This document shows, piece by piece, positions 33,871-51,952 of a stretch of 64,000 bases of DNA. The notes beneath the pieces were generated by a model. The model ran no database searches, was not told where the DNA came from, and saw only the letters and a list, made by a program, of their open reading frames with translations. This stretch comes from a virus, in the IMG/VR virus record IMGVR_UViG_3300046723_000260, positions 8,243 through 72,242 of that record; one strand, 5' to 3'. The first letter of the stretch is position 1. Every line of letters begins with the position of its first letter. Both the position numbers and the translations under genes were made by a program.

Positions 33871-36800
33871 ATGGGATGGGGCGGGGCGCGTCCGGGAGCC
33901 GGCCGCAAGAAACCGAAGGCGCCGGCGACGCCGCCGCTCAAGCCCAAGCCGACTCCGGAGATGCGCGAGGCGGAGCGCCGCTCGGTCGCCGCCATGCACG
34001 AGATGATCGAGGCGTCCCGCGCGGCGGCCTCGTCGGCCCGCGAGAAGCAGGCGCACCTCAACCCGTTCGCCATCCGCCCGGACCTGTTCCCGCCGCCCGC
34101 CGTCCCGAAGGCCAAGGGGATGCGGCTCGCGATGGACGACGCGACCAACTGGGCGTCGAACGCCTGGGCGGCCTCCGGCGCGGTGCTCGGCGCGGCGCAA
34201 GAGGGGCTGATGTTCCTCGGCTACCCGTACCTCTCGGAGCTGGCGCAGCGCCCGGAGTACCGGACCTTCGCGGAGACCATCGCGACGGAGGCGACCCGGA
34301 AGTGGATCAAGCTGAAGGGCTCGAAGGCCGAGGAGGAGGCCGAGGAGAAGGGCGCGACCCCGGAGCAGGCGCAGGACGAGCAGGCCGAGGCCGACGACAA
34401 GAACGACAAGATCAAGGATCTGGAGGGCTACCTCAACCAGCTCCAGGTCCGCGACCACTACGCCAAGATCGCGCTGCACGACGGGCTGTTCGGGCGGAGC
34501 CACCTCTACTACGACTTCGGCACCGATCTCGGCGATGACGAGCTCAAGACGCCGATCGGCAACGGTCGCGACGAGCTGACCAAGGCGAAGGTCACGACGG
34601 GATCGCTGAAGCGGCTGAGCGTGATCGAGCCGGTCTGGACCTACCCGACGACCTACAACGCGAGCAACCCGCTGGCGCCCGACTGGTACAACCCGCAGGT
34701 CTGGTACGTGCTCGGGCGCGAGATCCACGCGAGCCGCATCCCGCGGTTCGTGAGCCGCGAGGTGCCGGACATCCTCAAGCCGGCGTACTCGTTCGGCGGG
34801 CTCTCGCTGACGCAGCTCGCCAAGCCCTACGTCGACATCTGGCTGACGACGCGGGCGAGCGTCGGGCAACTGATCCACGCGTTCTCGGTCATGGTGCTGA
34901 TGACCGACCTGGAGAGCATCCTGCAGCCGGGCATCGCGACCTCGCTGCTGGCGCGCGTCAACCTGTTCAACGCGCTGCGCGACAACCAGGGGACGTTCGT
35001 CCTCAACAAGGAGACCGAGGAGTTCAAGAACGTCAGCGCGCCGCTCTCGGGCTTGCACGAGCTCCAGGCCCAGGCGCAGGAGCACATGATGAGCGTCGCC
35101 CGCATCCCGGCGGTGAAGTTCACCGGGATGCAGCCGCAGGGGCTCAACGCGTCGAGCGAGGGCGAGATCAGGGCGTTCTACGACACCATCGAGGCGTTCC
35201 AGAACGCGTTCTTCCGCCCGAAGCTCAACACGACGCTCGACTTCGCGATGATCTCGCTGTGGGGCGCGCGCGACGAGGAGATCGTCTACGACTTCGAGCC
35301 GCTGTGGGCGCTGAGCGAGAAGGAGAAGGGCGAGCTTCGCAAGGCCGACGCGGAGACCGACCAGATCCGGATCGACACCGGCGTCGTTAGCTCGGAGGAG
35401 GTCCGCGCCAAGGTCGCGGCCGATCCGGACTCCGGCTTCGACAACCTCGACCCCAACGACGTGCCCGACCTCCTGGAGGAGGAGGCGCAGGGCCTGCAGC
35501 CCGAAGGCGGGCGGCCGCAGCCGATCGCGCAGGGCGACCCGACCGGCGAAGTCAGCGAGGGAGGCGGGGCTAACGACGCCGTGGTCCCTTTCGGCGGCGG
35601 CGCTGACGAGGCGGGCTTCGAGGAATCGAAGCATCCCCGGGACGACGGCGGCAAGTTCACGAGCGGCTCCGGCGGCGGCAAGGGCGTTCCGCACGCGCCG
35701 CAGTTCGGCCTCCAGCACGGCAAGTTCACCGCGCCCGGCGGCGGCTCGTCGTCGTCGTCCTGGTTCACCGGGTTCGGCGCGAAGAAGACCAACGTCGGGG
35801 AGCCGATCGACGTCTCGAAGATGAAGAAGGTCGGCGCCCAGATGGGCTCGAACCCGGGCGGCGTGTTCGAGGGCGAGGGCGGCGAGAAGTTCTACGTCAA
35901 GCGGGGCAAGTCGAAGGCCCACGTCCGCAACGAGATGGTCGCCGCGGCGCTCTACGACCTGGCCGGCACGCCGACGCTGAAGTACCGGCCGGTCGAGGGC
36001 GGCGAGCACGTCGCGACCGAGATGGCGAAGCTCGACAAGGACAACGCGGCGAAGCTGTCGAAGGCCGAGCGGGCCGAGGCGGCGCGCGACTTCGCGGTCC
36101 ACGCGTGGCTCGCCAACTGGGACGCGGTCGGCACCGGCGGCGACAACCTCGGCACCGTGCGCGGCGTGCCGACGGCGCTGGACCTCGGCGGCGCGCTGGA
36201 GTTCCGGGCGCAGGGCGCTCCGAAGGGCAAGGCGTTCGGCACGAAGGTCGGCGAGCTCGACACGCTGCGCGACGGCAGCAACCACGACGCGGCGAAGATG
36301 TTCGGCGACATGACGCCGGCGCAGATGCGCGAATCGGCGCGGTACGTCGCGGCGATCGGCGACCAGAAGATCAAGGACGCGGTCGAGAAGAACGGCGGCG
36401 ACGCGGCGCTGGCCGAGAAGCTGATCAAGCGGCGCGACGACATCGCGGAGCGGATGAAGACGTTCGGCGAGGACGGCGACCCGGAGAGCCCGGACGGCAC
36501 GATGGTCGTCCCCGCCGGCGGCAAGATGCCGATCAAGAAGCTGAACGGCGTGGCGTTCAAGCCGTGGCGGCCGCCGGCCGACTGGGCCGCGGTCGACGGC
36601 CAGGCCGAGATCGACGAGCCCGAGTTCTTCGTGACGCCGGGCAAGCGCGCCTCGACCGGCGTGATCGTGCGCGAGGCCGACGGGCGGGTGTGGCTGATCC
36701 AGCCGCGCAACGGCTACGGCGGCTACGAGGGGACGTTCCCGAAGGGCGGGCTCGAGAAGGGGCTGTCGCTGCAGGCCAACGCGATCAAGGAAACCTGGGA

Positions 36801-38955
36801 GGAGAGCGGGCTCAAGGTGAAGATCACCGGGTTCGCCGGCGACCACGAGGGCGACGCCTCGACGACGCGCTACTACCACGCCGAGCGCGAGGGCGGCGAC
36901 CCGTCGCAGCACGACGACGAGAGCGAGGGCGTCGTGCTGGTCCCGGAGAGCAAGGCGGCGGGCTTCCTCAACCGCAAGCGCGACCAGGCGGTGCTGGCGC
37001 ACGACGAGGCGAACTTCGAGGAGAGCAAGCACCCGCGCGACGCGGAGGGCAAGTTCGCCACGACCGCGGGAGGCGGCGGCGGGCCGAAGGAGTTCGCGAA
37101 GGAGCTGAAGAAGATCGTCGGCAAGCACGGCGAGGGCGGCTCGTTCGAGAGCGCCGAGAAGAAGGCGGTCGCCGCGCTGAAGAACAACGTCGGCGAGGAA
37201 GATCTGGAGGCGGCGCTGTCGCCGGTCGAGGCGCACGAGCTGAAGAAGGCGCACGGCGGCTCGCTCGCCAAGGCGATGCAGAACCTGGCCGAGGAACACG
37301 GCATCGGCGGGGAATCGCTCGCGGAGGAGCCTGATGATGAGGAGGAGGGCTCCCTCTCCGCGAAGCAGATCGAGGATCTCCCGCTGCTCGGCAAGGCGAT
37401 GCAGTTCGTCCACGGCGGCGGGGTACCGCTGACGAACGCCGAAGCGACGACTTTGGCGAGCGAGATGGGAATGGAGATGCAGGACGTGTGGGACATGGTC
37501 GAAACGACCCCGCCCGATCTTACGCCATCGCTGGAAACGAAAGCTCCGGCGGCGACCTCTAGCGGCGGCAAGAAGACCGCGTTCGGCGGCCTGTGGAAGG
37601 TCGGCGTCGGTGCGCCGGGATCGGCCGAGGAGTTCGGCCACAACGTCGGGCACGTCCTCGGGAAGCCGACCAACGCGGGCTCGACCTACCGCACGATGCT
37701 CGGCTTCATGATGAAGAACGCCGCGAAGCACGGCATGCCCGAGATGGCCGAGAAGCTGAAGGACAAGCTCGGCGAGGCGTTCTTCCTGGCCGGCAACAAG
37801 GCGGCGCAGCAAGGCGAGGGCGCGGCCGCGGCGAAGGCGTTCAAGAAGGCGGCCGAGTTGGGATACCTCGGCGGCTCGCCGGCGGCGCCGCTCCTCGCAC
37901 CCGCCGAGAAGGCGGTCGCGGCGGCGGCGAAGGCTCCGACCCCGAAGGCCGCGGCGAAGGCGGCGGAGGAGGTCAAGCCGAGCAGCTTCCCGGCCCCGAC
38001 GGCGCAGGAGCTGGAGAAGGCGAAGAAGTCGGTGCAGCTCCAGTCCGCGTACGTGCCGGGCTTCAACGAGCTGCAGCAGATGAACGGGGCGATGACCGTG
38101 GTCCCGGAGGTGAACAAGCTCGTCAACGAGTTCAACGCCAAGTACGAGGGCAAGACGCTGACCGACGCCGGCGCGCTGGCGCAGAAGGTCAACGACTTCA
38201 AGACGCTCGGGGCGAAGGTCGCGGCGCTGAAGGCTTACGTGCAGCAGAACCAGACCGAGCTGCAAAAGAAGCAGGCGGCGAAGCAGAAGGAGGCGGCGGC
38301 CGAGCAGGCGAAGAAGGCCGCGGCGGAGAAGGAGAAGCTCAAGGCGCAGCACGCCGAGGTCACGAAGGAGCTCGGCATCACCGAGCCGGCCGAGCTGGAA
38401 GCCTTCGACGCGTTCGTCGACCACTTCGGCGGCACGAAGAACGCGCTCGACAAGTTCAAGTCGTGGACGGCGGAGGCGCAATACGCGGCGGCGAAGAACC
38501 CCGGCCACGGCTTCGAGAAGCTCTCCGGCTTCGAGATGGGCTGCATCAAGGCGTACACCGGGCCGCAGTCCGGCTGGATCAACACGGCGATCCGCGACGA
38601 CGCGATGACGCCGGCGCAGTTCATGTTCGAGAAGGTCCTCAACGCCGCGATCGACAAGCTGCCGAAGCAGACCAAGCCGACGAAGCGCGGACTCTCGCTC
38701 GACGCGGCGACGCAGGGGAAGCTCAAGCCCGGCGTGATCTGGACGCACCGCAACTTCGCGAGCAGCAGCTCGAGCGGATGGGGCGGCAACACCAAGCTGC
38801 ACATCACGACCAGCGGCAAGGGCGGCGCATACGTCGACCCGATCTCGTCCCACAAGGGCGAGGACGAGACGCTGTTTAAGAGCAACCTGAAGCTCTATAT
38901 TGAGAAGGTCGAGAACAAGGGCGGCGTGCTGCAGGTTTATTGCAAAGAGATGTGA
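33871..38955 (+). CDS. Portal (DUF1073-type) polyprotein fused to kinase-like, Nudix and ADP-ribosyltransferase domains
   Basis: Portal: FLGYPYLSELAQRPEYR...IHASR...FGGLSL.Q...IPAVKFTG.QP.GLNASSEGE...F.PLW (about 34130-35480). Then FYVK/NE/D...N/DLG kinase-like region, Nudix box GGLEKGLSLQANAIKETWEESGL, and ART R...SSS...EDE. Confidence 0.9.
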   Translation: MGWGGARPGAGRKKPKAPATPPLKPKPTPEMREAERRSVAAMHEMIEASRAAASSAREKQAHLNPFAIRPDLFPPPAVPKAKGMRLAMDDATNWASNAWAASGAVLGAAQEGLMFLGYPYLSELAQRPEYRTFAETIATEATRKWIKLKGSKAEEEAEEKGATPEQAQDEQAEADDKNDKIKDLEGYLNQLQVRDHYAKIALHDGLFGRSHLYYDFGTDLGDDELKTPIGNGRDELTKAKVTTGSLKRLSVIEPVWTYPTTYNASNPLAPDWYNPQVWYVLGREIHASRIPRFVSREVPDILKPAYSFGGLSLTQLAKPYVDIWLTTRASVGQLIHAFSVMVLMTDLESILQPGIATSLLARVNLFNALRDNQGTFVLNKETEEFKNVSAPLSGLHELQAQAQEHMMSVARIPAVKFTGMQPQGLNASSEGEIRAFYDTIEAFQNAFFRPKLNTTLDFAMISLWGARDEEIVYDFEPLWALSEKEKGELRKADAETDQIRIDTGVVSSEEVRAKVAADPDSGFDNLDPNDVPDLLEEEAQGLQPEGGRPQPIAQGDPTGEVSEGGGANDAVVPFGGGADEAGFEESKHPRDDGGKFTSGSGGGKGVPHAPQFGLQHGKFTAPGGGSSSSSWFTGFGAKKTNVGEPIDVSKMKKVGAQMGSNPGGVFEGEGGEKFYVKRGKSKAHVRNEMVAAALYDLAGTPTLKYRPVEGGEHVATEMAKLDKDNAAKLSKAERAEAARDFAVHAWLANWDAVGTGGDNLGTVRGVPTALDLGGALEFRAQGAPKGKAFGTKVGELDTLRDGSNHDAAKMFGDMTPAQMRESARYVAAIGDQKIKDAVEKNGGDAALAEKLIKRRDDIAERMKTFGEDGDPESPDGTMVVPAGGKMPIKKLNGVAFKPWRPPADWAAVDGQAEIDEPEFFVTPGKRASTGVIVREADGRVWLIQPRNGYGGYEGTFPKGGLEKGLSLQANAIKETWEESGLKVKITGFAGDHEGDASTTRYYHAEREGGDPSQHDDESEGVVLVPESKAAGFLNRKRDQAVLAHDEANFEESKHPRDAEGKFATTAGGGGGPKEFAKELKKIVGKHGEGGSFESAEKKAVAALKNNVGEEDLEAALSPVEAHELKKAHGGSLAKAMQNLAEEHGIGGESLAEEPDDEEEGSLSAKQIEDLPLLGKAMQFVHGGGVPLTNAEATTLASEMGMEMQDVWDMVETTPPDLTPSLETKAPAATSSGGKKTAFGGLWKVGVGAPGSAEEFGHNVGHVLGKPTNAGSTYRTMLGFMMKNAAKHGMPEMAEKLKDKLGEAFFLAGNKAAQQGEGAAAAKAFKKAAELGYLGGSPAAPLLAPAEKAVAAAAKAPTPKAAAKAAEEVKPSSFPAPTAQELEKAKKSVQLQSAYVPGFNELQQMNGAMTVVPEVNKLVNEFNAKYEGKTLTDAGALAQKVNDFKTLGAKVAALKAYVQQNQTELQKKQAAKQKEAAAEQAKKAAAEKEKLKAQHAEVTKELGITEPAELEAFDAFVDHFGGTKNALDKFKSWTAEAQYAAAKNPGHGFEKLSGFEMGCIKAYTGPQSGWINTAIRDDAMTPAQFMFEKVLNAAIDKLPKQTKPTKRGLSLDAATQGKLKPGVIWTHRNFASSSSSGWGGNTKLHITTSGKGGAYVDPISSHKGEDETLFKSNLKLYIEKVENKGGVLQVYCKEM

Positions 38956-38957: not shown

Positions 38958-39281
38958 ATGGTCGAGCGAATCGACGCCACGCAGATGCTCCTGACGCCGG
39001 AGGAGGCCGCGCAGTTCGACGCGCAGGCCGCGGCGCAGGCGAGCGGATCCGCGAGCAAGGCCGAGGCGCGCTACCAGAACGAGCCGCGCGGCGAGGAGAG
39101 GTGCGACAAGTGCTCGATGTTCGTCGCGGGCTTCCCCACGGACCCCGGCGGCTTCTGCACGAAGGTCACGTCGTTCCGCGGCGGCCCGCTCGGCACGATC
39201 TTCGCGGACGGCTGGTGCAGGTTCTTCGAGCCGGACCCGCTCGCGGAGGAGCAGCCCGAGGACTTCGCGGACTTGAAATGA
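38958..39281 (+). CDS. HiPIP-like (high-potential Fe-S) four-cysteine protein
   Basis: SKAEARYQNEP...CDKCSMF...CTKV...I.ADGWCRFF follows the HiPIP YQ-CxxC-F-C-GWC pattern. Confidence 0.65.
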   Translation: MVERIDATQMLLTPEEAAQFDAQAAAQASGSASKAEARYQNEPRGEERCDKCSMFVAGFPTDPGGFCTKVTSFRGGPLGTIFADGWCRFFEPDPLAEEQPEDFADLK

Positions 39282-40063
39282 TCGCCAAGTCGGCCGCGCG
39301 CGCGATTCGCCCGAACGCCGGGATCGAGGCGGCGTACCGCAAGCGGCTCCGCCTCCTGCTGGAGGAGATGCGGCGCTCGGTCGAGCACTGGATCGAGGCC
39401 GCCTACCGGGACAACCCGCCGATCGCGATGGACTCGCCGGCCTCCGACCTCGACCGCGAGATGCGAAGGCTGTCGCGGCAATGGCGGCGGCGGTTCAACG
39501 AGGCTGCGCCGGAGATCGCGGCGCTGTTCGCGAGGCGCGCGCGAGGAGGAGCCGACGCGACGCTGCTGCGGATGCTCAAGCAGGCCGGCTTCACGGTCCC
39601 GTTCCGGATGACCAAGGGCATGCGCGACGTGGTCGACGCGACGGTCGCGGAGAACGTCTCGCTGATCCGCTCGATCCCGGAGAAGTACCTCGGCGACGTC
39701 CAGACGTCGGTGATGCAGAGCGTCAAGGCCGGCCGCGACCTCGCGACGCTGTCGAAGGACCTTCGCAAGAACTACGGCGTGAGCTACCGGCGCGCGGCGC
39801 TGATCGCCCGCGACCAGAACAACAAGGCCACGAGCGCGCTGATGCGGGTCCGCCAGGTCGACCTCGGGCTCGAGAAGGGCGTGTGGCTGCACTCGCACGC
39901 CGGCAAGGAGCCGCGGCCGACCCACCTCGCCAACCACGGCAAGAAGTTCGACCTCAAGGAGGGCTGGTTCGACCCCGACCCGCGCGTCCGCAAGCGCATC
40001 CTGCCCGGCGAGCTGATCAACTGCCGCTGCGTCTGGAAGCCCGTCGTCCCGGGGCTGACGTGA
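39278..40063 (+). CDS. Head morphogenesis protein (MuF/SPP1 gp7 family)
   Basis: ENVSLIRSIP...RAALIARDQNNK...WLHS...RPTH...PGELINCRC. Confidence 0.92.
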   Translation: MIAKSAARAIRPNAGIEAAYRKRLRLLLEEMRRSVEHWIEAAYRDNPPIAMDSPASDLDREMRRLSRQWRRRFNEAAPEIAALFARRARGGADATLLRMLKQAGFTVPFRMTKGMRDVVDATVAENVSLIRSIPEKYLGDVQTSVMQSVKAGRDLATLSKDLRKNYGVSYRRAALIARDQNNKATSALMRVRQVDLGLEKGVWLHSHAGKEPRPTHLANHGKKFDLKEGWFDPDPRVRKRILPGELINCRCVWKPVVPGLT

Positions 40064-40254
40064 CCTCCGTCCTCCACATGAACCTGCTGCGGTTCCGGTG
40101 CGCCTACGCCCCCGGATTCCTCGGCGTGAGCGAGGAGGAGATCGACGCGATGAAGCGCGGCGCGCTGCCGGCGGAGCGCGTCGCCGAGATCGTCAAGGTC
40201 GCGGAAGTCGCCGCCGAGGGGCTGCGCGAGTCGCCCGTCCAGGGGACGTGCTGA
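40060..40254 (+). CDS. Hypothetical protein
   Basis: GTGA overlap with the MuF stop. Confidence 0.4.
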   Translation: MTSVLHMNLLRFRCAYAPGFLGVSEEEIDAMKRGALPAERVAEIVKVAEVAAEGLRESPVQGTC

Positions 40255-40334
40255 CGCGGCGGCGTGACAGGTCGCGGCTTTGATGTTAAAGACTCAGCCA
40301 TCGAATCGGCCTTCGCGATCCTGGGGAGAGCTTC

Positions 40335-40811
40335 ATGTCGAATTTTTCCGGTCCGCTTTTGGTTGGCACGGTCGCGGGCACCTACAAGAGCGCGGGCGTC
40401 CTCGCCGCGGCGGGCCGCCGCGCGATGGTCTACGAGGCCGAGTTCGGCCAGACCGCGGCGCTGGCCTCGACCGACTGCCAATGCCAGTGGGACCTTTCCC
40501 GGATCGCCAGCACCAACACGATGGCCGCGACCGCGGTGGCGATGAACCTTCTGGACCCCGCCGACATCGCCGCGACGACGCTGTTCTACAACACCGTGAC
40601 CACCGAGCCGCCGAACATCACGACCGTCGGCCTCGGCCTCAACCTGAAGAACTGGGCGATCAACCAGCGCGGAAGCTACCGCTGGCGCGCGCTCGACGAC
40701 GGCGACAACATCATCGTCGCCTCCGGCGCCTCGCAGGGCCTCGCGCTCCGGGTGCTGTCCTCGAACTTCACCGGCTCCGCGGTCGGGACGTTGAGCATCA
40801 TCGAGCGGTGA
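40335..40811 (+). CDS. Putative virion beta-sandwich protein
   Basis: SD GGGGAG; Thr/Ala/Ser-rich beta pattern; preceded by a promoter-like motif. Confidence 0.6.
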   Translation: MSNFSGPLLVGTVAGTYKSAGVLAAAGRRAMVYEAEFGQTAALASTDCQCQWDLSRIASTNTMAATAVAMNLLDPADIAATTLFYNTVTTEPPNITTVGLGLNLKNWAINQRGSYRWRALDDGDNIIVASGASQGLALRVLSSNFTGSAVGTLSIIER

Positions 40812-40815
40812 TCGC

Positions 40816-41115
40816 TTGCCTCGGCTCGTAAGGCTGAAGCCGGGAGCGGTCTCCCAATACTTCGACGAGCCCGGCCAGTCCGGCCGGGTTCGCGAGATCC
40901 ACTCCTCGACCTGCTCGCACTGCCAGCACATGACCGAGTTTCCGTCGATGCGGCGGATGATGGAGTTCGTCGAGATCTGCCGCGGCTGCATGAAGCTGAT
41001 CTGCCTCGGCTGCGTCGGGAAGCCCTGCGTCCCCTTCGAGAAACGTGTGGACATCAAGGAGCGGGAGGACGAGCTCCACGCGAAACTCGTGCGCGAGGGC
41101 TGGCGCTGCTATTAG
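40816..41115 (+). CDS. Cys-rich zinc-binding protein
   Basis: CSHCQH, CRGC, CLGC, PC.PFE. Confidence 0.6.
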   Translation: MPRLVRLKPGAVSQYFDEPGQSGRVREIHSSTCSHCQHMTEFPSMRRMMEFVEICRGCMKLICLGCVGKPCVPFEKRVDIKEREDELHAKLVREGWRCY

Positions 41116-41157
41116 AATGCCCCCCGATATTCTTTTCCACGCGAGGGCAAACATTCC

Positions 41158-41739
41158 ATGTCGACCTGCGACCACTGCGCGCTCTGGCTGGTGCGCCGAG
41201 AGACCGGCTACGACGGCGGCGAGATCGTCGTCACCTGGTTCGACCCCGACGGCCGCGGCAAGTGCCTGGGACCGCTCAAGGGCGTCCTGACCGAGCCGGA
41301 GTTCGGCTGCAACTCGTTCCAGGATGGCGGTCCGCTGATCGAGACCTCCCGCAAGGGCGGCCACCCGTGGCAGCACGCGACGCCGATCCCGTGCCCCGAC
41401 TGCCGCAAGCCCGGCTGCGGCTTCGTCGCGCCCGGCGAATGCACGGCGATCGGCTGCCCCGGGACCGACAAGTGCCTCGGGCTCGGCAGCGCCAACGACG
41501 GGGCCGACGGCCGCTGCGTCGGCACCGGGACCGTGCTGCGCTACGACGACGGCTTCGTCGGCGACAACCGCACGAAGAAGCACCCGAAGGAATCGGAGCG
41601 GGTCGAGCCGAGGTCGTGCCAGCGGTGCGCCAGGCCGGTCGAGACGACGTGGCTGCACTGCCCCCACTGCGGGCAGAACCTGCACGAGGAGGGGAAGACC
41701 GAGGTCCTCAACGACGTCCTGACCGGAGGCATCACGTGA
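41158..41739 (+). CDS. Cys-rich multi-zinc-finger protein
   Basis: CDHC, CPDC, CLGLG..C.GTG (DnaJ-like), CQRC..CPHCG. Confidence 0.65.
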   Translation: MSTCDHCALWLVRRETGYDGGEIVVTWFDPDGRGKCLGPLKGVLTEPEFGCNSFQDGGPLIETSRKGGHPWQHATPIPCPDCRKPGCGFVAPGECTAIGCPGTDKCLGLGSANDGADGRCVGTGTVLRYDDGFVGDNRTKKHPKESERVEPRSCQRCARPVETTWLHCPHCGQNLHEEGKTEVLNDVLTGGIT

Positions 41740-44850: not shown

Positions 44851-47800
44851 TGGCATTGCCGACGACGATCACTGGAATCAGTACGGCGGCCGCTTGTGCG
44901 GGTCCATTTATTTCGAGCGGCGGGAATGTCTATTTCTTCGGCGTTGATGGAACGACCGCCACAACATTGCAGGCTTACAAAGCAACTGACCCGACGAGTT
45001 CGTTTTCCTCGATAGCGACGTGCGACGGATCGACCATCGTCACGACCAGCATCAACGTAATTAGTGCTTTTCAAGTCGGGGACACGATCCACATTTGCTT
45101 CGGGGGTCAGGCTTCTTCGACAACGGCCGGTTTTGGATATTGTGCTTTCGACATGTCATCCGACGCCTTCTCTGTTTCCACGCCGGAAGGCCCCGCTCAC
45201 AGCAGTTTGGACACAAGAACGTCAGGCGGAACTCTACAATTCGGAATATCCTGCATCGTCCGCTCCGGCGGCGAGGTTGTCGCCTTCTTCAGCGGTGCTC
45301 GCGTTGCCTCGATGGGCAACAGTTGGGCGCAGACTTACTACTCCCGGCGCACCGGAGTAAACACATGGTCTGCGAACACGCAGGTCAGTGCAGGCGGCGC
45401 AATAGACTTTACATTGCCGGAAGCGCTGTTGGGAGCATCTGATGAATTGCACTTTTGCTATGCGGCGAGCAGTGGAAATATATTCAGACAAAGGGCGCTA
45501 ACGTCTGGAAATTCGTTGCAAACTGAGGGAAGCGTCTCCTTGGCAGTAACCGAAACCCAAGGAAATTCCTACGACCAGTCTGGAACAAGAAAGGTCATCG
45601 TCGCTGCTGGGACAAGCACGACCTCGAATGTCTATTTTGACGGTGGGAACACACCGACGCTCAATACCTCCAACGGCGGCGATGGCACGTTCTCTATTCC
45701 TGAGAGGGTTTTTCATGATGGAACGACCGCATATTTGGTGGTGCGCCGGACGACCACGACCGGTCTTGCCATCATAAGCTCCACAGACGGCGGGGCAACT
45801 TGGTCTGCGATCACGAACATATTTAGCGCCAGCATCACTCAGGCAGACTCCAACCTGTCCATCGATGGCAACGTCTTCACTCGCGGTTCCTCTGTCGTCA
45901 TTCCCTATGTCGTCAATGACGGCGGCACGTTGAAGTACAACGAGTATTTGATCCGGTCGCTCGCCAGCCCGAGCGGCTGGAACGATCAATGGCCGCGCGC
46001 GCTTCCGATCGTCGCGAGAAACCGCCAGCGAGCCTCCGCGTTCCTTCGCGGCGACGACGGCATCTACAACGTGATGGCGCCGCCTCCCGCCGCGCCGCCG
46101 TTCGGGTACGATCCGCCGCCGGTCCATCACCGCAAGCCGTACAACCGCGCGGCCGCGGGCATGCGCGGCAGCGACGGCACCGACGCGCCGAAGATCAACT
46201 TCTTCGACCACGGATTCCCGGTGCAGCCGCCGCAGCCTCCCCGCCGGCCGCCGACTCGATCCGCCGCCGCGATCATGCCGAGCGTCAACGTCGACGCGGT
46301 CTTCCAGAGCTGGCGCAACGCCGGGTGGGAAGTGCAAGCGCCGCAACCTCCGCATCGCCGCCCGGAGCGCGGCGCCGCGATCTTGGAAGGAGACGACGGC
46401 ACCGAAGCCCCGTTCGTTCCGCCATTCTCGCCGCCGCCGCCGCTCGACATGCCGACCCAGCTCCGCGCGAGGCCGATCAGGCTCGTCGACAAGGCGCAGC
46501 AAGACCCGCAGGCCGCGTTCCAGAACTTCGTCGGCTTCGGCTTCGAGGTCGCGCCGCCCGTGGCGAAGGGCAAGCGCACGGTGACCGTCGACGACGCGTC
46601 GCTCGATCCGCAGAACGCGTTCCAGTTCTTCCGCGACGCCGGGTTCGTCGCGACCTTCCCGCAGCCGCCGCACCCGAGGCCTGAAAGGTTCGGCGCGATC
46701 GCCCGAGGCAGCGACGGCACCGAGGGGCGCTTCCAATTCTGGATCAACGACGGCTGGGAGATCGCCCCGCACCAGCCCGGCCATCCGCGGCGCGAGCGGG
46801 CCGGCGCGATCCTCGAAGGCGACGACGGGAACGAGGGCGTCTTCGCGCAGTTCGTCCCGCTCGGCTGGCCGGTCCAAGATCCGCAGCCCCGGCATCCGAG
46901 GCCGGAGCGCGCCGCCGCCGCGATGACCGGCGACGACGGGATCCAGGCGACGTTCACGCTGACCGCGGCTCAGCCCGTCCTCTTCGAGCCGACGTTGCCG
47001 ACGGTCAAGGCGCGGCCGAGGATCACGGCGGACGACGCGTCGCTCGATCCGCAGCAGCCCTACGCCGCGTTCTTCCCGCTCGGCTTCCAGGTCCAGGACT
47101 GGCAACCGCCGCATCCCCGTCCCGAGCGCGCCGCGGCGACGTTGGAGGGCGACGACGGAATCGAGGGGACGTTCGTCCTGACCGCGGCGCAGCCGACGCT
47201 GTTCGAGCCGGCGCTGCCGACGCTCCGCGCCCGCCCGAGGATCACCGTCGACGACGCCTCGGTCGACCCGCAGCAGCCGTTCGCGCAGTTCTTCGCGATG
47301 GGGTTCGAGCCGACGCAGTCGCAGCCGCTCCACCCGCGCCGCGAGAAGGCCGGGGCCGCGATGCGCGGCGACGACGGCTCGGCCGGCGTCTATCAGTTCT
47401 GGCGCAACTCCGGCTGGGAGGTTCAGCCTCCGCAGCCGCCCCATCCCCGGCCCGAGCGTTCGGGCGCGCTCGCCCGCGGCGAGGACGGCACCGAGGGCGT
47501 CCAGATCAACTTCGTCGCGCACGGCTGGCCGACTCAACACGTCCAGCCGCCTCACCCGCGCCCGGAGCGCGCTGCCGCGGTCATGCTCGGCGACGACGGC
47601 GACCAGGCGGTCTACCAGCCGACCTTCACGCCGGCGTGGTGGGAGGTCCAGACCCCGATGCTGCGGCGCCGCCCGCCGCTGACGGTGGACGACGCCTCGC
47701 TCGACCCTCTCAACGCGTTCCAGGCGTTCGCCGCGATGGGATTCGAGCCGGCGCTGCCGCTGGTCCGCGTCCGGCGCCGCGTGCTGTCGGACAGGTGGAC

Positions 47801-49238
47801 GTACGACCCGCTCCAGCCGTTCGCGCGGTTCTTCGACGCCGGCTTCTCGCCGACCTATCCGCAGCCGCCGCACCCTCGACCGGAGAGGGGAGCGGCGATC
47901 CTGGAGGGCGACGACGGCTCGGAGGGCACGTTCACGGCGTGGCGGAACGCCGGGTGGGAGGTGCAACCTCCTCAACCCCCGCACCCCCGCCGCGAGCGCG
48001 CGGGCTCGATCGCGCGGGGGCTCGACGGGACCGATTCGCCGTTCGCGCAGTTCGTCAACCACGGCTGGCCGATCCAGCCGCCGCAGCCTCCCCATCCGCG
48101 CCCGGAGCGCGCCGGCGCGTTGTTCGGGGGCGACCCTGGCAACGAGGCGGCCTTCGCGCAATTCTTCGCCCACGGCTTCCCCGTCCAGCCTGTGCAGCCT
48201 CCCCACCCTCGACCGGAGCGGGGCGGGGCGATCATGCGGGGGGACGACGGGACCCAGGCGATCTTCCAGTTCATCGTGACGCCGATCTCGGTGTTCGAGA
48301 CGACCCCGCCGCTGCTGCCGCGCCCGACCGGATGGCGGGCCGCGGCGCTGATGCGCGGAGACGACGGCACGCAGGCGACCTTCGCCCGGTTCTTCGACCA
48401 CGGCTGGGCGGTCCAGCACCCGCAGCCTCCGCACCCGCGGCGCGAGCGATGGGCCGGGCTGATCCAGGGCGACGTCGAGCCGCACTTCCGGTGGCTGCCG
48501 TGGCCGTACCTCGGGTTCGAGCCGACGCCGCCGCTCGCCGCGTTCCGGCGCCATCCGGGCGGGGCGATCGCGCAGGGCTCGTTCGTCGAGGCGGTCCTGG
48601 TGCAGGCCGCGGTCGCGTTCGGCTGGCAGATGGTCGACGCGCAGCTTCGCCGGCCGCCGACGCGGCGCGGCGCGGCGCTCCGGATCGACGACGTGATCTC
48701 GCGGCTCCTCGCGACGCCGACGCACGGCTGGCCGGTCCAGCCTTGGCAGCCGCCGCGGCCGAGGTGGTGGCGCGCGGGTTCGACCGCCGCGGGCGACCAG
48801 GGGACGCAGCGCCCGTTCGCGCTTTGGCGCAACGACGGATGGGAGGTCGCGCCGCCGATGCTGCGCCGGCCGCCGCGCCGCGAGCGGTTCGCCGTCCCCG
48901 ACGTCTTCAGCCCGGCGGTCGCGCCGCCGGCGTTCACCTGGCAAGGCGAGATGCCGTTCCAGCCGCCGCACCCGCGGCGCGCGCTCGACGACCGCTCGTG
49001 GGCCTGGCAGGGCTGGCTGATCCGGAGGCGCGCGCACGTCGCGAAGTGCCTCGCGTTCGACGAGGCGGTCTGGGAGTCCGAGCCGACGAGCGTGAGCGTC
49101 GCGAAGTGCTTTGCCTCTGACGCCGCGGCGTGGCAATCGGAGCCCGCGGCCGCCCGAGGCTTCGAGTCCATCTGCATCGACAGTGCGGTATGGTCGTGCC
49201 AAGCCTCCGATTCTGGACCGGAGCCAGACGACGCATGA
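44850..49238 (+). CDS. Large putative virion protein: low-GC beta-propeller-like N-terminus plus Pro-rich tandem repeats
   Basis: Asp-box SSTDGGATWS in the N-terminal ~370 aa; then roughly 25 repeats of GWEVQPPQPPHPRPER.GAI..GDDG.EG.F and FEP.LP..R.RP.ITVDDASLDPQ..F. Confidence 0.8.
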   Translation: MALPTTITGISTAAACAGPFISSGGNVYFFGVDGTTATTLQAYKATDPTSSFSSIATCDGSTIVTTSINVISAFQVGDTIHICFGGQASSTTAGFGYCAFDMSSDAFSVSTPEGPAHSSLDTRTSGGTLQFGISCIVRSGGEVVAFFSGARVASMGNSWAQTYYSRRTGVNTWSANTQVSAGGAIDFTLPEALLGASDELHFCYAASSGNIFRQRALTSGNSLQTEGSVSLAVTETQGNSYDQSGTRKVIVAAGTSTTSNVYFDGGNTPTLNTSNGGDGTFSIPERVFHDGTTAYLVVRRTTTTGLAIISSTDGGATWSAITNIFSASITQADSNLSIDGNVFTRGSSVVIPYVVNDGGTLKYNEYLIRSLASPSGWNDQWPRALPIVARNRQRASAFLRGDDGIYNVMAPPPAAPPFGYDPPPVHHRKPYNRAAAGMRGSDGTDAPKINFFDHGFPVQPPQPPRRPPTRSAAAIMPSVNVDAVFQSWRNAGWEVQAPQPPHRRPERGAAILEGDDGTEAPFVPPFSPPPPLDMPTQLRARPIRLVDKAQQDPQAAFQNFVGFGFEVAPPVAKGKRTVTVDDASLDPQNAFQFFRDAGFVATFPQPPHPRPERFGAIARGSDGTEGRFQFWINDGWEIAPHQPGHPRRERAGAILEGDDGNEGVFAQFVPLGWPVQDPQPRHPRPERAAAAMTGDDGIQATFTLTAAQPVLFEPTLPTVKARPRITADDASLDPQQPYAAFFPLGFQVQDWQPPHPRPERAAATLEGDDGIEGTFVLTAAQPTLFEPALPTLRARPRITVDDASVDPQQPFAQFFAMGFEPTQSQPLHPRREKAGAAMRGDDGSAGVYQFWRNSGWEVQPPQPPHPRPERSGALARGEDGTEGVQINFVAHGWPTQHVQPPHPRPERAAAVMLGDDGDQAVYQPTFTPAWWEVQTPMLRRRPPLTVDDASLDPLNAFQAFAAMGFEPALPLVRVRRRVLSDRWTYDPLQPFARFFDAGFSPTYPQPPHPRPERGAAILEGDDGSEGTFTAWRNAGWEVQPPQPPHPRRERAGSIARGLDGTDSPFAQFVNHGWPIQPPQPPHPRPERAGALFGGDPGNEAAFAQFFAHGFPVQPVQPPHPRPERGGAIMRGDDGTQAIFQFIVTPISVFETTPPLLPRPTGWRAAALMRGDDGTQATFARFFDHGWAVQHPQPPHPRRERWAGLIQGDVEPHFRWLPWPYLGFEPTPPLAAFRRHPGGAIAQGSFVEAVLVQAAVAFGWQMVDAQLRRPPTRRGAALRIDDVISRLLATPTHGWPVQPWQPPRPRWWRAGSTAAGDQGTQRPFALWRNDGWEVAPPMLRRPPRRERFAVPDVFSPAVAPPAFTWQGEMPFQPPHPRRALDDRSWAWQGWLIRRRAHVAKCLAFDEAVWESEPTSVSVAKCFASDAAAWQSEPAAARGFESICIDSAVWSCQASDSGPEPDDA

Positions 49239-49528
49239 ACACCTACCAGATCGACACCTCGATCAAGCTGCAGGGCATCTTCGTCGACGACGTCGGCCTG
49301 ACCGCCGACCCGACGACGATCGCGCTGTTCGTCCGGCCTCCCGCCGGCGCGGTGCGGACGTTCAACTTCCCGGCGGACGTCACGAAGGACCGCACCGGCG
49401 TCTACTCGATCGTCATCACGCCGGAGATCTCCGGGCAGTGGACTTACCAATGGCAGGGCGCCGGGGCGGTGGTCGCGACCTCGCCCGAGACGCCGTTCAA
49501 GATCGCGCCGACGACGCTGATCTCGTGA
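49235..49528 (+). CDS. Small Ig-like/beta-sandwich virion protein
   Basis: F.D..G..ADPT.I.L.V..P.G...KDRTGVY...G.WTY.W.G. Confidence 0.6.
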   Translation: MNTYQIDTSIKLQGIFVDDVGLTADPTTIALFVRPPAGAVRTFNFPADVTKDRTGVYSIVITPEISGQWTYQWQGAGAVVATSPETPFKIAPTTLIS

Positions 49529-49559
49529 CCGGCGAGGGAATCGGTGCTATCCATCGGCG

Positions 49560-49742
49560 ATGGGCCGGCTGAAATTCCTTCGGCGGTGGTTGCGGAGCGG
49601 GGTTTGCTACTCGCTCGTCGCCGCGCCGTGGCTCGCCGCCCCGATCGAGCGGTTCGCGCCCGGCGTCTATCCGTTCGGCCGCGAGCCCGTCCCGACCGAC
49701 GAGGATCGCAAGCGCAGGCAGCGCGGCGCGGCGCGAACATGA
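49560..49742 (+). CDS. Hypothetical protein
   Basis: ATGA overlap with the protease start. Confidence 0.35.
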   Translation: MGRLKFLRRWLRSGVCYSLVAAPWLAAPIERFAPGVYPFGREPVPTDEDRKRRQRGAART

Positions 49743-51952
49743 TCACGAACCCGAGCTCCGGACCTCCCGCCGGCCTCCGCAAGCTGGTCGACGACATGCG
49801 CCAGCGCGGCATCGCCGACGACATGACGCCGGAGGACTGGGCGGCGATGCGGCGCGGCTTCAGCCAGTGGATGAGCGAGGAGGAGCGCGAGGGGGAGGAG
49901 CACGGCGAGGACGCCGAGTTCAAGGAATCGGATCACCCGCGCGACAACACCGGAAAGTTCGGATCGGGCGGCGGCGGCAAGACGTCGAGCAAGGATCCTG
50001 CCAGGGAGGGCCGGATCGCCGCCGGCTTCAAGGGCGGCACGCCCGGCGAGCAGGGCGAGATCGCGGCGAAGACCGACGCGGCGGCGGTCGAGCATTCCAA
50101 GAAGGCCGGGCTGGCGATCATCAAGCGGATCAAGCGCGACTCGTTCCTCGGCAAGTACGCCAGCTCGGACGACGAGTACGGCAACGACCCGTTCACGGTC
50201 AGGAAGGACGGCTCGGTCGAGGTCTCGATGCGCGACGTCGGCCAGTGGGTCAACCCGCCCGGCAAGGAGCGCGAGGAGGACTACGACTGGAAGGTCCCGA
50301 CCAAGGAAACCGAGGCCAAGGTCAAGGCGGCGGTCGCGTCGATGGAGAAGGAGCTCGGCGTCAAGATCAGCGTGAGCGGCGGCGAGAAGAGCTACACGTA
50401 TTTCCGGATCTCCGCGCCGAAGGCCGGCGATGAGTCGGTGGCGACTGATTCGGCCCTTCGCCTCGCGCTCGACCGCGAATCGATCCGCGAGAAGTCGAAG
50501 GACGGGCACCTCCACGTCGCCCGCACGCCGATCTCGAAGGCGACCGTCAACCCGTACCGCGGCGCGGAGATTCCGAACTGCGAGGAGCTCGGCCTCGACC
50601 CCGAGGAGATCTACTACCTGCTGCGCGATCCGGACGAGCTGGCGAAGGCCGCGGCGAGCTTCAACGGCAAGCCTTTGCTGCGTAAACACGTGCCCGTCAG
50701 CGCCGAGGACCACGCCGCGCACGACACCATCGGCGCGGTGATGAACGACGCCGCGTTCGAGGATCCGTACCTCAAGGCGAGCCTCTCGGTTTGGCCGCAG
50801 GACGACATCGACGACATCGAGTCGGAGGCGAAGAAGGAGCTGTCGAGCGGCTACCACTACCGCGCCGAGATGACTCCCGGAAATTTCCGTGGTATGCGCT
50901 ACGACGGGGTGATGAGGGACATCGTTGGAAACCACGTCGCCCTGGTGAAAGATGGACGCGCCGGCCCGGACGTCGTGGTCGGTGACAGCATGGAGAGCCT
51001 CATGGCCAAGCCGACCCGTTTCGCCGCCCTCACCCTCGGCCTGGTCGCCGCCAACGTCGCACCGCTGATCGCCAAAGACTCGAAGATCGAGCTGCCGAAA
51101 GGCCTGTTCTCTTCGATCACCACCAAGAACTTCCAGACGAAAAGGACCGAGCTGCTCGGCGGCGTCCGCGCCGCGCTCGACGGCAAGCTCCGCAAGGGCC
51201 TCGCGCTCGACGCCAGCATGGAGCAGGTCGGCAAGGTGATGGACAACGTCGCCGGGCTGTTCGGCGAGAAGGGCGGCGACGAATCGGTCTCCGAGGAGCA
51301 GCACAACGCGATGGAGGCCGCGGCCCACGGCGAGAGCAACCTCGGCATCCCGAAGAGCGTCGGCGAGGAGTTCGAGAAGGCCGACAAGGGCAAGTCGTTC
51401 GACGCCGAGCCGTTGAAGAACTTCCTGCGCGAGAAGGGCATGGGCGAGGACGACATCAAGGCGGCGTTCGACATGCTGCCGAAGCCCGGCACGGACGCGT
51501 CCGAGGAGGAGCAGGCCGAGAAGACCGAGGAGGAGAAAAAGGCCGCGGTCAGCGAGGCCGTCGAGAAGGAGCGCAAAGCTATGGACGAGAAACTCAAGGG
51601 CATGGTCACGAAGACCGCGATGGACGAGGCGATCAAGGCCGCCGCGAAGACCACGCGCGAGACCGAGCGCGGCATCCGCGCCGCCCTGGACTTCGTCCGC
51701 CCCTACGTCGGCGAGCTCGCCTCGTCGCTGGCGCTCGACAGCGCCGACGACGTCTACCGCCACGCCGCGGTGGCGATGAAGATCGACGGCGCGAAGGACA
51801 TCCACCCGTCGGCGCTGCCGACGCTGATCAAGATGCTGCCGAAGCCCGGCGCGCGCCAGACCGAGCACACCTCGATCGCGCAGGACGAGGCGACGGTGAC
51901 CGACTTCGAGAAACGCTTCCCGAACGCCACCCGGATCCAGCCCGGCGCCTGA
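49739..51952 (+). CDS. Prohead protease/scaffold (DUF2213-type) with N-terminal HPRD-tagged extension
   Basis: R...DG.L.V...ISKA.VNPY.G.EIP...LR.PDEL...SFNGKPLL..H...KELSSGY...YDG.MRDI.GNHVALV..GRAG.DV.VGD; acidic scaffold C-terminus. Confidence 0.9.
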   Translation: MITNPSSGPPAGLRKLVDDMRQRGIADDMTPEDWAAMRRGFSQWMSEEEREGEEHGEDAEFKESDHPRDNTGKFGSGGGGKTSSKDPAREGRIAAGFKGGTPGEQGEIAAKTDAAAVEHSKKAGLAIIKRIKRDSFLGKYASSDDEYGNDPFTVRKDGSVEVSMRDVGQWVNPPGKEREEDYDWKVPTKETEAKVKAAVASMEKELGVKISVSGGEKSYTYFRISAPKAGDESVATDSALRLALDRESIREKSKDGHLHVARTPISKATVNPYRGAEIPNCEELGLDPEEIYYLLRDPDELAKAAASFNGKPLLRKHVPVSAEDHAAHDTIGAVMNDAAFEDPYLKASLSVWPQDDIDDIESEAKKELSSGYHYRAEMTPGNFRGMRYDGVMRDIVGNHVALVKDGRAGPDVVVGDSMESLMAKPTRFAALTLGLVAANVAPLIAKDSKIELPKGLFSSITTKNFQTKRTELLGGVRAALDGKLRKGLALDASMEQVGKVMDNVAGLFGEKGGDESVSEEQHNAMEAAAHGESNLGIPKSVGEEFEKADKGKSFDAEPLKNFLREKGMGEDDIKAAFDMLPKPGTDASEEEQAEKTEEEKKAAVSEAVEKERKAMDEKLKGMVTKTAMDEAIKAAAKTTRETERGIRAALDFVRPYVGELASSLALDSADDVYRHAAVAMKIDGAKDIHPSALPTLIKMLPKPGARQTEHTSIAQDEATVTDFEKRFPNATRIQPGA

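Follow-up and report, generated by a model that had tools for sequence, protein, structure and literature searches.

A short peptide of the general form [FW]-x-E-x-x-H-P-R-[D/G/A]-x-x-G-[K/R/Q]-[FW] plus a Gly-rich spacer stands ahead of unrelated modules in phage head proteins and probably labels capsid-carried proteins for loading or cutting. Judged from sequence, it is a widespread short linear motif that is so far undescribed: neither the motif nor any conserved junction peptide is mentioned in the main texts of two papers on polyvalent proteins (PMC5512222 and PMC9503650), and the main text of a paper on MuF toxins (PMC5576092) mentions no such motif, linker, or cleavage. The reading that we prefer, and to which we give about even credence, is that the motif marks the start of head-carried cargo modules and that it would be read by a component of the procapsid for loading and be cut in fusions.

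The record IMGVR_UViG_3300046723_000260 is a 72,242-bp phage genome, and the stretch analyzed here (the window) comprises its positions 8,243 to 72,242 (64,000 nt). Genome-wide, there are exactly three copies of [FW]-x-E-x-x-H-P-R-D-x-x-G-K-F plus a Gly run. Counted from the first F to the last F, and all on the plus strand, copy 1 (FEESKHPRDDGGKF) is at 35617-35658 (amino acids 583 to 596 of the 33871-38955 open reading frame) and is followed by TSGSGGG; copy 2 (FEESKHPRDAEGKF) is at 37015-37056 (amino acids 1049 to 1062 of the same frame) and is followed by ATTAGGGGG; and copy 3 (FKESDHPRDNTGKF) is at 49919-49960 (amino acids 62 to 75 from the ATG at 49736) and is followed by GSGGGG. The sequence-only reading had quoted these three peptides correctly, as the sequence itself, a six-frame regular expression, and a three-copy profile agree, and it had correctly named the Gly linkers and the host genes, portal polyprotein and protease (by family match, Phage_portal_3 with NUDIX and a weak ADPrib_exo_Tox, and DUF2213/head maturation protease). 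The full motif was found by regular expression at those three places only in all six frames of the window; for HPRD..GKF, 4e-5 occurrences are expected from the window's six-frame amino acid composition and 3 are observed. The three-copy profile detected the same places in the whole 72,242-bp record (E values of 9e-24 to 5e-22) and no fourth place at an E value of ≤10. Two looser patterns each gave one extra match, HPR[DN] at 54078 on the minus strand (unrelated) and HP[RK].{3,4}G.[FWY] at 20625. The three copies share 28 to 32 of 42 bases, with their serines drawn from different codon families (TCG and AGC); the conservation is thus at the protein level and does not stem from a recent DNA repeat.

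Copies 1 and 2 lie in a 1,694-amino-acid portal-anchored polyvalent protein (33871..38955, plus strand), which is supported by its open reading frame, translation, Pfam and PHROGs matches, and 119 long relatives, and which is adjoined upstream by the large terminase subunit (31666..33360, plus strand; phrog_2 terminase large subunit, E = 1.4e-23). Its order is portal, tag 1, kinase-like module and NUDIX, tag 2, helical region and ART-like C terminus. The portal domain (amino acids 120 to 499; 34228..35367, plus strand) matches PF06381 Phage_portal_3 (E = 1.4e-75), and its core has an AF2 pLDDT of mostly 84 to 98. The module after tag 1 (amino acids ~640 to 862; 35788..36456, plus strand) is kinase-like by eye and is present in about 64 of the 119 portal-fusion relatives; Pfam and PDB sequence searches gave no meaningful match for it and confirmed no family. 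A tagged polyvalent protein in locus L014 matches PI3_PI4_kinase/ABC1. The NUDIX domain (amino acids 925 to 1029; 36643..36957, plus strand; PF00293, E = 4.7e-12) has no tag copy directly ahead of it. The ADP-ribosyltransferase-like C-terminal domain (38458..38952, plus strand) matches PF03496 ADPrib_exo_Tox at 25.4 bits (cutoff, 23.4; E = 1e-5) when the C-terminal fragment of the protein is the query, and the match is weaker when the whole 1,694-amino-acid protein is the query.

Polyvalent proteins have been described as portal-fused products of the head gene cluster that combine multiple enzymatic domains (ART, NUDIX, and others) and for which packaging and injection are predicted (PMC5512222; PMC9503650), and fusions of NUDIX to MuF, portal, and a capsid-processing serine peptidase are stated explicitly in PMC9503650. 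Like those proteins (Iyer 2017), the window protein has at least two distinct effector or enzymatic domains (NUDIX, ADPrib_exo_Tox, and a conserved unnamed module) and is head associated, being fused to Phage_portal_3 and encoded between TerL and MuF. It differs from them (Iyer 2017, 2022) in having no embedded peptidase, whereas processing of polyvalent proteins has been proposed to be carried out mainly by embedded zincin-like peptidases (PMC5512222; PMC9503650). The MuF polymorphic toxins of temperate phages carry variable C-terminal toxin/effector domains on a head protein (PMC5576092). The window MuF, a minor head protein of about 262 amino acids (39275..40063, plus strand; PF04233, E = 1.4e-13 to 1.7e-15), is instead free-standing and untagged, with 10 amino acids past the PF04233 match and no extension. 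Fusions of that kind are found in relatives only (L016, L017, P0011, P0017, P0023, and P0076), with the motif 17 to 32 amino acids past the MuF domain and ahead of the effector.

Copy 3 belongs to the N-terminal extension of the DUF2213 head maturation protease/scaffold (49736..51952, plus strand; PF09979 DUF2213, E = 5.3e-48; phrog_2229 head maturation protease, E = 6e-108), the frame of which is open from a GTG at 49544. By family and by position, this gene is a maturation protease gene: it sits between the portal and major capsid genes, and downstream of it are a cement/minor capsid protein (51999..52967, plus strand; PF23982 XM1_gp53, E = 4.4e-22; PF22758 Phage_cement [E217 gp24/Pam3 gp6], E = 1.4e-12) and the major capsid protein (53017..54111, plus strand; phrog_264 major head protein, E = 1.1e-53). 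The protease domain is modeled by AF2 with a pLDDT of >92, and by Foldseek its fold is closest to herpesvirus assemblins and T4 gp21, with weak matches throughout, none of which reaches an E value of 1e-3 (top matches 1o6e_B [E = 4e-3], 4v07, 2pbk, 1at3, and 1nkk, with T4 gp21 as 5jbl_A [E = 6.6e-2]; TM of 0.3 to 0.4 by target). The H318, S370, and H400 columns are invariant in a 63-sequence alignment of the protease.

In the AF2 models, the motif has the character of a linear motif, with disordered linkers and a weak local turn. Tag 1 in the portal model has a pLDDT of 60 to 67 on the motif versus 35 to 45 in the flanks and forms a small turn in which R is bridged to the last F. The tag 3 region, linker included, is coil at a pLDDT of 31 to 35, and this tag does not dock in cis onto the protease domain.

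Homology between related portal fusions breaks just past the motif: among 233 HSPs with 119 relatives, 37 end at residues 595 to 625 and 19 end at residues 1060 to 1090, just past tags 1 and 2, respectively. P0004 and P0008 are collinear to residue 862, diverge over the NUDIX region, where P0008 has unrelated sequence in place of the NUDIX of the portal fusion, and realign from AHDEANFEESKHPRD onward. Relative L006 has the polyprotein split into three genes, of which the third opens with a leader plus tag; its portal gene stops 25 amino acids past the tag, so the tag can remain with the upstream part. The ends of L006 gene 3 and of P0008 are homologous to the window's ART-like C terminus. These findings uphold the earlier proposal of a modular cassette, in that motif plus Gly spacer stands ahead of unrelated modules on portal, MuF, and protease and also at the N terminus of free-standing proteins near packaging genes. 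Breakpoints directly past a motif in flexible linkers would also be produced by a passive joint, i.e., a conserved hinge or safe crossover point for module shuffling with no molecular reader. We give this scarcely any credence, since recombination homology does not require protein-level conservation across 27 to 69% GC with differing codons and since the motif is also present at the extreme N terminus of single-module proteins, where nothing is joined.

The earlier reading had also proposed building a profile of the motif and tabulating the downstream domains, and this revealed diverse cargo domains on head anchors. Searched against 1.84e9 representatives, a 24-copy profile matched 3001 protein clusters at an E value of ≤1e-3, 311 at ≤1e-10, and 6 at ≤1e-30. 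The best 150 of the 3001 clusters are all multicopy, with 2 to 18 matched stretches at a median spacing of 262 amino acids, which is domain-sized. Among 509 copies from the best 150 hits (H, P, R, G, and the last aromatic being fixed by the collecting regular expression), E is present at -3 in 92%, D at +3 in 71%, W or F at -5 in 94%, and Gly at +11 to +14 in 36 to 57%; the commonest residue next to the Glu of [FW]-x-E is Ser (39%). Each of the three window copies does follow an xxD site, as claimed, and in 65 portal-fusion relatives the first junction has an almost invariant D at -9. Over the 509 copies, however, D is rare at these positions (8% at -9 and 11% at -8), which does not support a conserved upstream xxD as a general cleavage site.

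Motif carriers span 27 to 69% GC, with hosts assigned to Gastranaerophilales, Christensenella, Treponema, and Vampirovibrio, and include high-GC phages; Xanthomonas phage PhiXhv-5 is a carrier in culture. Near-invariance across such hosts would suit a universal partner better than fast-evolving head proteins, and one copy per module would be sensible if the modules work singly in the cell. The motif might act after injection, by docking each ejected module to a highly conserved component of the host (chaperone, protease, sliding clamp, ribosome, RNA polymerase, or envelope) that would refold, position, or activate that module. We consider this improbable, because it would not need the strict tie to head genes and head anchors and because no resemblance to a known host-binding motif was found; searching PDB sequences with the motif profile yielded nothing beyond a chance match (cyclin-Y, E = 2.8).

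The tie to the head is seen both in fusions and in free-standing proteins. When 120 portal fusions of at least 931 amino acids were picked by portal homology alone, ignoring the motif, 116 had at least one copy, with the first a median of 50 amino acids past the portal core. At 33 motif-selected loci, the H is within 60 amino acids of the first start codon in 21 and within 60 amino acids of the C-terminal end in 1, and the best 150 representatives show the same N-terminal bias (60/150 versus 2/150). All 11 loci from bacterial genomes start M-x(1-3)-[WF]-x-E-x-x-HPRD; among the cargo there are Peptidase_M23, Phage_lysozyme (two loci), PBECR1, and Gln_amidase, enzymes whose action is expected at the time of entry or later. 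Genes beside motif carriers encode terminase, portal, and MuF. A domain scan of 22 proteins from viral loci and 81 of the best 150 representatives found the anchors Phage_portal_3, Phage_portal, Portal_Mu, Phage_Mu_F, DUF2213, Mu-like_Pro, and Peptidase_S78_2, and cargo that includes ART-PolyVal, ADPrib_exo_Tox, NUDIX, GNAT, topoisomerase IB, LPD3, InPase, Zeta_toxin, 2H, PBECR1/3, a PI3/PI4-kinase-like domain, FtsK, C39, and others, with RNases and lysozymes also among the cargo classes; no ArdC or relaxase families were found in these proteins.

According to the preferred reading, the assembling procapsid would contain a conserved component that reads the exposed tag. By analogy, our first candidate for this reader is the assemblin-fold maturation protease/scaffold, based on the DUF2213 fold matches (all weak) and on parallels with SPN3US gp245, which cuts after A-x-E with Ser preferred at P1' and removes N-terminal propeptides (PMC10052503), and with T4 propeptides, which target proteins to the prohead core (PMC3012670). 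Once bound through the tag, free-standing tagged proteins would be drawn into the procapsid, as with the T4 capsid targeting sequence (CTS), while in covalent fusions, the present portal polyprotein among them, the protease would cut the cargo loose at the tag so that it exits with the DNA. Candidate bonds are the one after Glu in [FW]-x-E-S, resembling the A-x-E-S site of T4-type proteases, and the one between G-K-F and a small residue. In this phage, a kinase-like plus NUDIX piece and a helical plus ART piece would be freed from the twelve portal subunits, and an N-terminal piece would be freed from the protease.

A rather unlikely alternative is that the motif is a processing site only, at which the prohead protease or another protease cuts polyproteins, with no role in head entry. 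Portal-fused cargo must be cut free for injection, the motif is the sole conserved junction element in 116/120 fusions, its copies are at domain-sized spacing, and the frequent Glu followed most commonly by Ser resembles the gp245 site. On the other hand, free-standing proteins carry the motif 2 to 4 residues past the Met (the 11 bacterial-genome loci and L009 to L011), where a cut would remove almost nothing, and nine more invariant or near-invariant downstream positions exceed the needs of known prohead protease sites.

Several observations count against both this alternative and the preferred reading. The motif is present in only 5 of the protease's 120 closest homologues, and the numerous NUDIX-protease fusions among the 120 lack it at the junction, so the DUF2213 family can carry, and presumably release, cargo without a tag. 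Together with the untagged window NUDIX, this does not support a tag requirement for every fused module; the claim that the tag heads distinct modules stands insofar as the motif is portable before unrelated ones. The missing cis docking of tag 3 speaks against the protease as reader, and a reader with a poorly conserved surface is hard to reconcile with a motif that accompanies three or more protease families and about seven portal families. Specifically against targeting, a tag would be redundant on a portal-fused module, yet it is kept in 116 of the 120 fusions. Pfam domains end a median of 58 amino acids ahead of the next copy, and many end just 17 to 30 amino acids ahead, which places the tag no farther from the preceding domain than from the following one; like the four copies of P0088, which are spaced 55 to 62 amino acids apart in basic low-complexity sequence that holds no intervening domain, this counts against a motif that heads modules. 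The tandem P0088 copies lie in the tail of an HMG-box DNA-binding protein and would fit a self-contained element that tethers cargo to packaged DNA, metal ions, or other copies through E/H/D, R/K, and the aromatic pair, with no protein reader. DNA and ions are the only truly universal head contents, invariant E, H, and D occur together with R and K/R, and the predicted turn bridges R to the last F. This is nevertheless very unlikely, given that the net charge of the core is negative, that a 14-residue stretch with a single His is a poor metal site, that the PDB profile search gave no structural or sequence precedent, and that the pLDDT of the tags is low (see above).

A close parallel to the preferred reading is the T4 CTS, a short conserved N-terminal peptide that directs diverse cargo to the scaffolding core and is removed by the prohead protease after Glu (PMC3012670; PMC10052503). 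Recalling it and the phiKZ/SPN3US-type propeptides, the motif is N-terminal in most free-standing carriers (and at 21/33 motif-selected loci and 11/11 genome loci), and it contains [FW]-x-E. Unlike them, it is internal in all three window copies, occurs inside polyproteins and after portal or MuF, and spans many phage groups and not one lineage; no sequence relation is claimed. Encapsulin cargo-loading peptides are likewise short and conserved, have a flexible Gly/Pro-rich linker, and suffice to load arbitrary cargo into an HK97-fold shell; they are usually C-terminal, have a sequence other than the motif, and bind the shell protein directly.

The sequence-only reading described three copies of a tag in two head genes, and a six-frame search of the window and of the whole genome found exactly three copies of the motif [FW]-x-E-x-x-H-P-R-D-x-x-G-K-F, against 4e-5 copies expected by chance. 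These copies have 28 to 32 of 42 bases in common and use different Ser codon families, which indicates that selection acts on the tag peptide. A Gly run lies behind each of the three copies, as had been proposed, and each is preceded by an xxD sequence. At the first junction, D at position -9 (counted from the motif H) is nearly invariant in 65 relatives, whereas among 509 collected copies D is present in only 8% at -9 and 11% at -8, and the xxD sequence is thus not a general feature of the motif. The consensus of these 509 copies is A/K, E/D, W (53%) or F (41%), D (53%), E (92%), S (39%), x, H, P, R, followed by D (71%), G (14%) or A (10%), x, x, G, K (43%), R (39%) or Q (12%), and F (87%) or W (13%), where the regular expression used to collect the copies preset H, P, R, G and the final aromatic residue. 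After the last aromatic residue come a small residue, any residue, and four positions that are 36 to 57% Gly.

The window comprises bases 8243 to 72242 of a virus record that is complete (72,242 bp) and has direct terminal repeats; the G+C content is 68.5%. The late region, on the plus strand, is of the myovirus type and includes a large terminase (31666 to 33360), a 1694-aa portal fusion (33871 to 38955) and a free-standing MuF gene (about 39275 to 40063). The DUF2213 head maturation protease/scaffold runs from an ATG at 49736 to 51952 and is followed on the same strand by a cement protein, the major capsid protein, sheath, tube and tape measure. The portal fusion consists of Phage_portal_3 (aa 120 to 499; E = 1.4e-75), tag 1 in a disordered linker (aa 583 to 596), a conserved module without a match in Pfam or among PDB sequences (aa ~640 to 862; window 35788 to 36456), NUDIX (aa 925 to 1029; E = 4.7e-12), tag 2 (aa 1049 to 1062), a long helical stretch and an ADP-ribosyltransferase-like C terminus (25.4 bits versus a cutoff of 23.4 when the C-terminal fragment was searched). 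The protease protein has a leader of ~60 aa from the ATG at 49736, then tag 3 (aa 62 to 75), the Gly run, an unassigned alpha/beta module, the protease domain and a scaffold-like tail. By eye, the module at aa ~640 to 862 of the portal fusion has the look of an atypical kinase (e.g., HAWLANWDAVG...GDN); it is covered by ~64 of 119 portal-fusion relatives and recurs in the second of three split genes of a 73-kb relative, L006.

In the AF2 model of aa 1 to 436 of the protease protein (63-row alignment), the protease domain has a pLDDT of >92, while residues 54 to 102, which contain tag 3 and its spacer, are coil with a pLDDT of 31 to 35, and tag 3 is not docked on the protease domain of the same chain. 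In a Foldseek search, the protease model came closest to herpesvirus assemblins and T4 gp21, every match being weaker than E = 1e-3. The model of portal aa 60 to 640 (65 rows) has a confident portal core, and tag 1 appears as a small island (pLDDT of 60 to 67, with flanks at 35 to 45) that forms a three-residue helical turn with a bridge from the R to the last F.

When IMG/VR was scanned with patterns based on the three copies, 241 matches were obtained, of which 22 passed tblastn. A profile built from a diverse alignment of 24 copies was searched against 1.84 billion representative proteins. It matched 3001 of them at E ≤ 1e-3, and the count drops to 311 at E ≤ 1e-10 and to 6 at E ≤ 1e-30; the near-invariant 14-residue peptide is therefore present in at least 3001 protein clusters (50% identity). 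Every one of the best 150 of these 3001 matches has 2 to 18 matched stretches, and within these 150 a regular expression found 525 copies with a median spacing of 262 aa (10th to 90th percentile, 154 to 542 aa), which is the size of a domain. The motif is also present in the portal (699 aa; motif at about aa 522 to 541) of a cultured phage, Xanthomonas phage PhiXhv-5. Three 30-aa motif segments matched no Pfam family at E ≤ 10, and a PDB sequence search with the motif profile found no chain with the motif, its sole match being cyclin-Y at E = 2.8, which is at the level of chance. The motif is absent from the whole genome of phage Mu and from the head regions of SPP1 and 80alpha that we examined, and this may explain why it was never met in model systems. 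We conclude that this is a real and widespread linear motif, conserved at the protein level, in disordered linkers. Polyvalent head proteins that join ART and NUDIX to a portal or protease are already known as an architecture. The main texts of Iyer 2017 (PMC5512222), Iyer 2022 (PMC9503650) and Jamet 2017 (PMC5576092) make no mention of HPR, a linker, glycine or a "conserved motif," and relative to these main texts the conserved tag is new. Among the matches listed in a literature text search for motif strings, the only one was "hPRDX," i.e., peroxiredoxin.

The sequence-only reading had suggested tabulating domains with a profile of the motif. We scanned with Pfam the 22 motif-bearing viral-locus proteins and 81 of the best 150 representatives (56 of ≤1060 aa and the first 25 by rank of >1060 to 5000 aa). 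A family was found in 14/22 viral-locus proteins, 33/56 small representatives and 21/25 large representatives, and 8/22 viral-locus proteins and 27/81 representatives are without any Pfam family. The anchors in these proteins are Phage_portal_3, Phage_portal, Portal_Mu, Phage_Mu_F, DUF2213, Mu-like_Pro and Peptidase_S78_2. The cargo comprises ART-PolyVal, ADPrib_exo_Tox, DRAT, NUDIX, GNAT, topoisomerase IB, LPD3, InPase, Zeta_toxin, 2H, PBECR1/3, a PI3/PI4-kinase-like domain, FtsK, C39, RelA_SpoT, His_Phos_1 and HMG box; no ArdC or relaxase family was found among the scanned proteins (22 plus 81). Genes neighboring the motif genes encode terminase, portal and MuF. These results demonstrate that the motif is tied to candidate head-carried cargo modules. 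One representative, P0088 (535 aa), has an N-terminal HMG box and four tandem tags spaced at 55 to 62 aa within a low-complexity, strongly basic tail, and its Atlas matches score <0.8 and are a mixture of Eukaryota and Uroviricota.

The two tagged head genes differ in how regularly their homologues carry the motif. Among portal homologues of 931 to 2965 aa that were selected by portal similarity alone (the best 120 of 315 at E ≤ 1e-10), 116/120 have at least one motif profile match and 102/120 match the strict regular expression, and the median distance from the portal core to the first copy is 50 aa. In contrast, only 5/120 protease homologues of 405 to 1292 aa (the best 120 of 1478 at E ≤ 1e-10) carry the motif. 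These five are longer (796 to 887 aa) and have it upstream of the protease domain; many of the homologues without it fuse NUDIX to the protease and have no tag where the two meet. We conclude that, for C-terminal extensions of the portal, the motif is close to obligatory, whereas for a module fused directly before the protease it is not. Hint/intein-splicing Pfam domains (PF13403 and PF14890) occur in the portal-fusion homologues P0283, P0295, P0325, P0340, P0350 and P0397, which suggests that there are inteins inside these portal genes. For P0312, P0315, P0349, P0395 and P0397, the precomputed Pfam column lists Zeta_toxin (PF06414) before the portal family; if column order reflects position, Zeta_toxin is N-terminal to the portal in these proteins.

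We examined tag position in 33 loci chosen by motif only, 22 of them viral and 11 from bacterial genomes. The motif H is ≤60 aa from the first start codon in 21/33 loci and ≤60 aa from the C-terminal end in 1/33 (L006, in which the portal gene ends 25 aa past its tag). In the best 150 representatives, the corresponding counts are 60 and 2. All 11 genome loci start with M-x(1-3)-[WF]-x-E-x-x-HPRDDEGKF, these loci having been found with a narrower alignment that covers only tag variants near those of the window. The source genomes (27 to 46% GC) are those of Gastranaerophilales, Christensenella, Treponema, Vampirovibrio and two further bacteria. Among the cargo at these loci are Peptidase_M23, Phage_lysozyme (two loci), PBECR1, Gln_amidase and, weakly matched, GH108, with no Pfam family in 4/10 proteins scanned. 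This N-terminal bias agrees with the proposal that each tag precedes a distinct domain. Speaking against simple heading of a module, across 72 domains in 50 proteins the median distance from the end of a Pfam domain to the next tag is 58 aa (many are 17 to 30 aa), versus 129 aa from a tag to the next Pfam domain start. The tag is mostly on the N-terminal side of modules.

Comparisons between relatives point to module exchange. P0004 and its relative P0008 align collinearly from residue 3 to residue 862 (51% identity) and differ in the NUDIX region, and the match resumes at AHDEANFEESKHPRD. Coverage of the portal fusion by 119 relatives falls from 118 in the portal to 97 at residues 561 to 600 and 60 at 601 to 640, and of 233 HSPs, 37 have their end at 595 to 625, 18 at 855 to 875 and 19 at 1060 to 1090. 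In L006 (4180 to 10356), the parts of the portal polyprotein are split over three genes. The first encodes the portal with a tag; the second, untagged, encodes NUDIX and the kinase-like module in reversed order relative to the window; and the third encodes a leader, tag, helical region and ART. The first split is after a tag and the second is before one. These data show that the tag coincides with mosaic breakpoints. That it is a passive recombination joint, a reading in which breakpoints would fall at the tag while its peptide did no work, seems to us scarcely credible; the codon differences between the window copies point to selection on the peptide. The window is not the sole carrier of the motif; it displays the motif clearly, since two of its head genes hold three copies between them and its split and swapped relatives are informative.

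We consider it an evenly balanced proposition that the motif is a load-and/or-cut tag. A procapsid component would read the motif and thereby load free-standing cargo, and in fusions the maturation protease would free cargo at the same element. Against this, many protease homologues, NUDIX-protease fusions included, lack the motif; AF2 shows no docking in cis; portal fusions keep the tag though they need no targeting; and the motif is found together with several families of protease and of portal. This last observation would suit a universal host partner equally well, as expected of a host-docking peptide acting after injection, which we judge improbable, and it would fit equally well a self-contained function such as a tether to DNA, metal or itself, which we judge very improbable. 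The [FW]-x-E-S of the motif resembles the A-x-E|S sites described for SPN3US gp245 (PMC10052503). A role as a processing site only, in which being cut would be its whole function, is unlikely in our estimate; at the genome loci the tag stands at the very start of the protein.

A broader form of the load-and/or-cut model, which we hold as a tentative and rather doubtful possibility, is that the motif is a universal, portable load-and-release address, with one conserved reader and a tag that by itself would be enough to get any protein into the head and would then be clipped, leaving the cargo to be injected with the DNA. The reader would most plausibly be the putatively assemblin-fold protease/scaffold of the procapsid. 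A precedent is known from T4, in which the propeptides and the CTS are conserved targeting peptides carried by a variety of internal proteins (PMC3012670). The T4 CTS is lineage specific, whereas the motif, if it does act in load and release, would be a general counterpart across phages of many bacterial phyla. MuF (Pfam or PHROG) is present in 17/22 motif-bearing viral records. MuF as the universal reader was downgraded, with PF04233 in only 1/10 bacterial genomes with tagged genes, a count that is not decisive given incomplete MAGs and an insensitive model. A PHROG scan of the head genes of three of the loci (L009, L010 and L011) matched no family of any kind.

The motif is a concrete, mutable candidate signal for the selection of proteins into the capsid interior in tailed phages beyond T4, and it may bear on how giant polyvalent proteins get cut into working pieces. 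For annotation, it offers a simple marker of effector modules carried in the head, of which about one in three lacks a Pfam family, and, if load and release holds true, it would provide a ready means of loading proteins of choice into laboratory phages.

Between MuF and the maturation protease lie ~9.5 kb of the window (40063 to 49544) with no head-protein family match, containing small ORFs, a Zn-ribbon protein, a 938-aa protein and a 1462-aa ORF; in Xanthomonas phage PhiXhv-5, the MuF and protease genes are separated by ~600 bp only. The 938-aa protein (41262 to 44078, plus strand) matches phrog_24975 (E = 1.5e-34) and has, by weak Pfam matches, a methyltransferase-like region, TPR repeats and a glycosyltransferase family 9 segment. 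The 1462-aa ORF (44850 to 49238, plus strand), within the head gene cluster, has no Pfam or PHROG family and is made up of numerous degenerate repeats with the pattern ...G[WF]..Q.PQPPHPRPER.GA...GDDG... (TRF periods of 219 and 111 nt), in which the HPR is distinct from that of the tag.

At L036, L037, L039 and L040, the tag begins a free-standing Peptidase_M23, Phage_lysozyme or weak GH108-like protein. The MAG labels are Gastranaerophilales or Vampirovibrio, with two labeled bacteria only, and these tagged hydrolases are candidate capsid-carried cell wall hydrolases.
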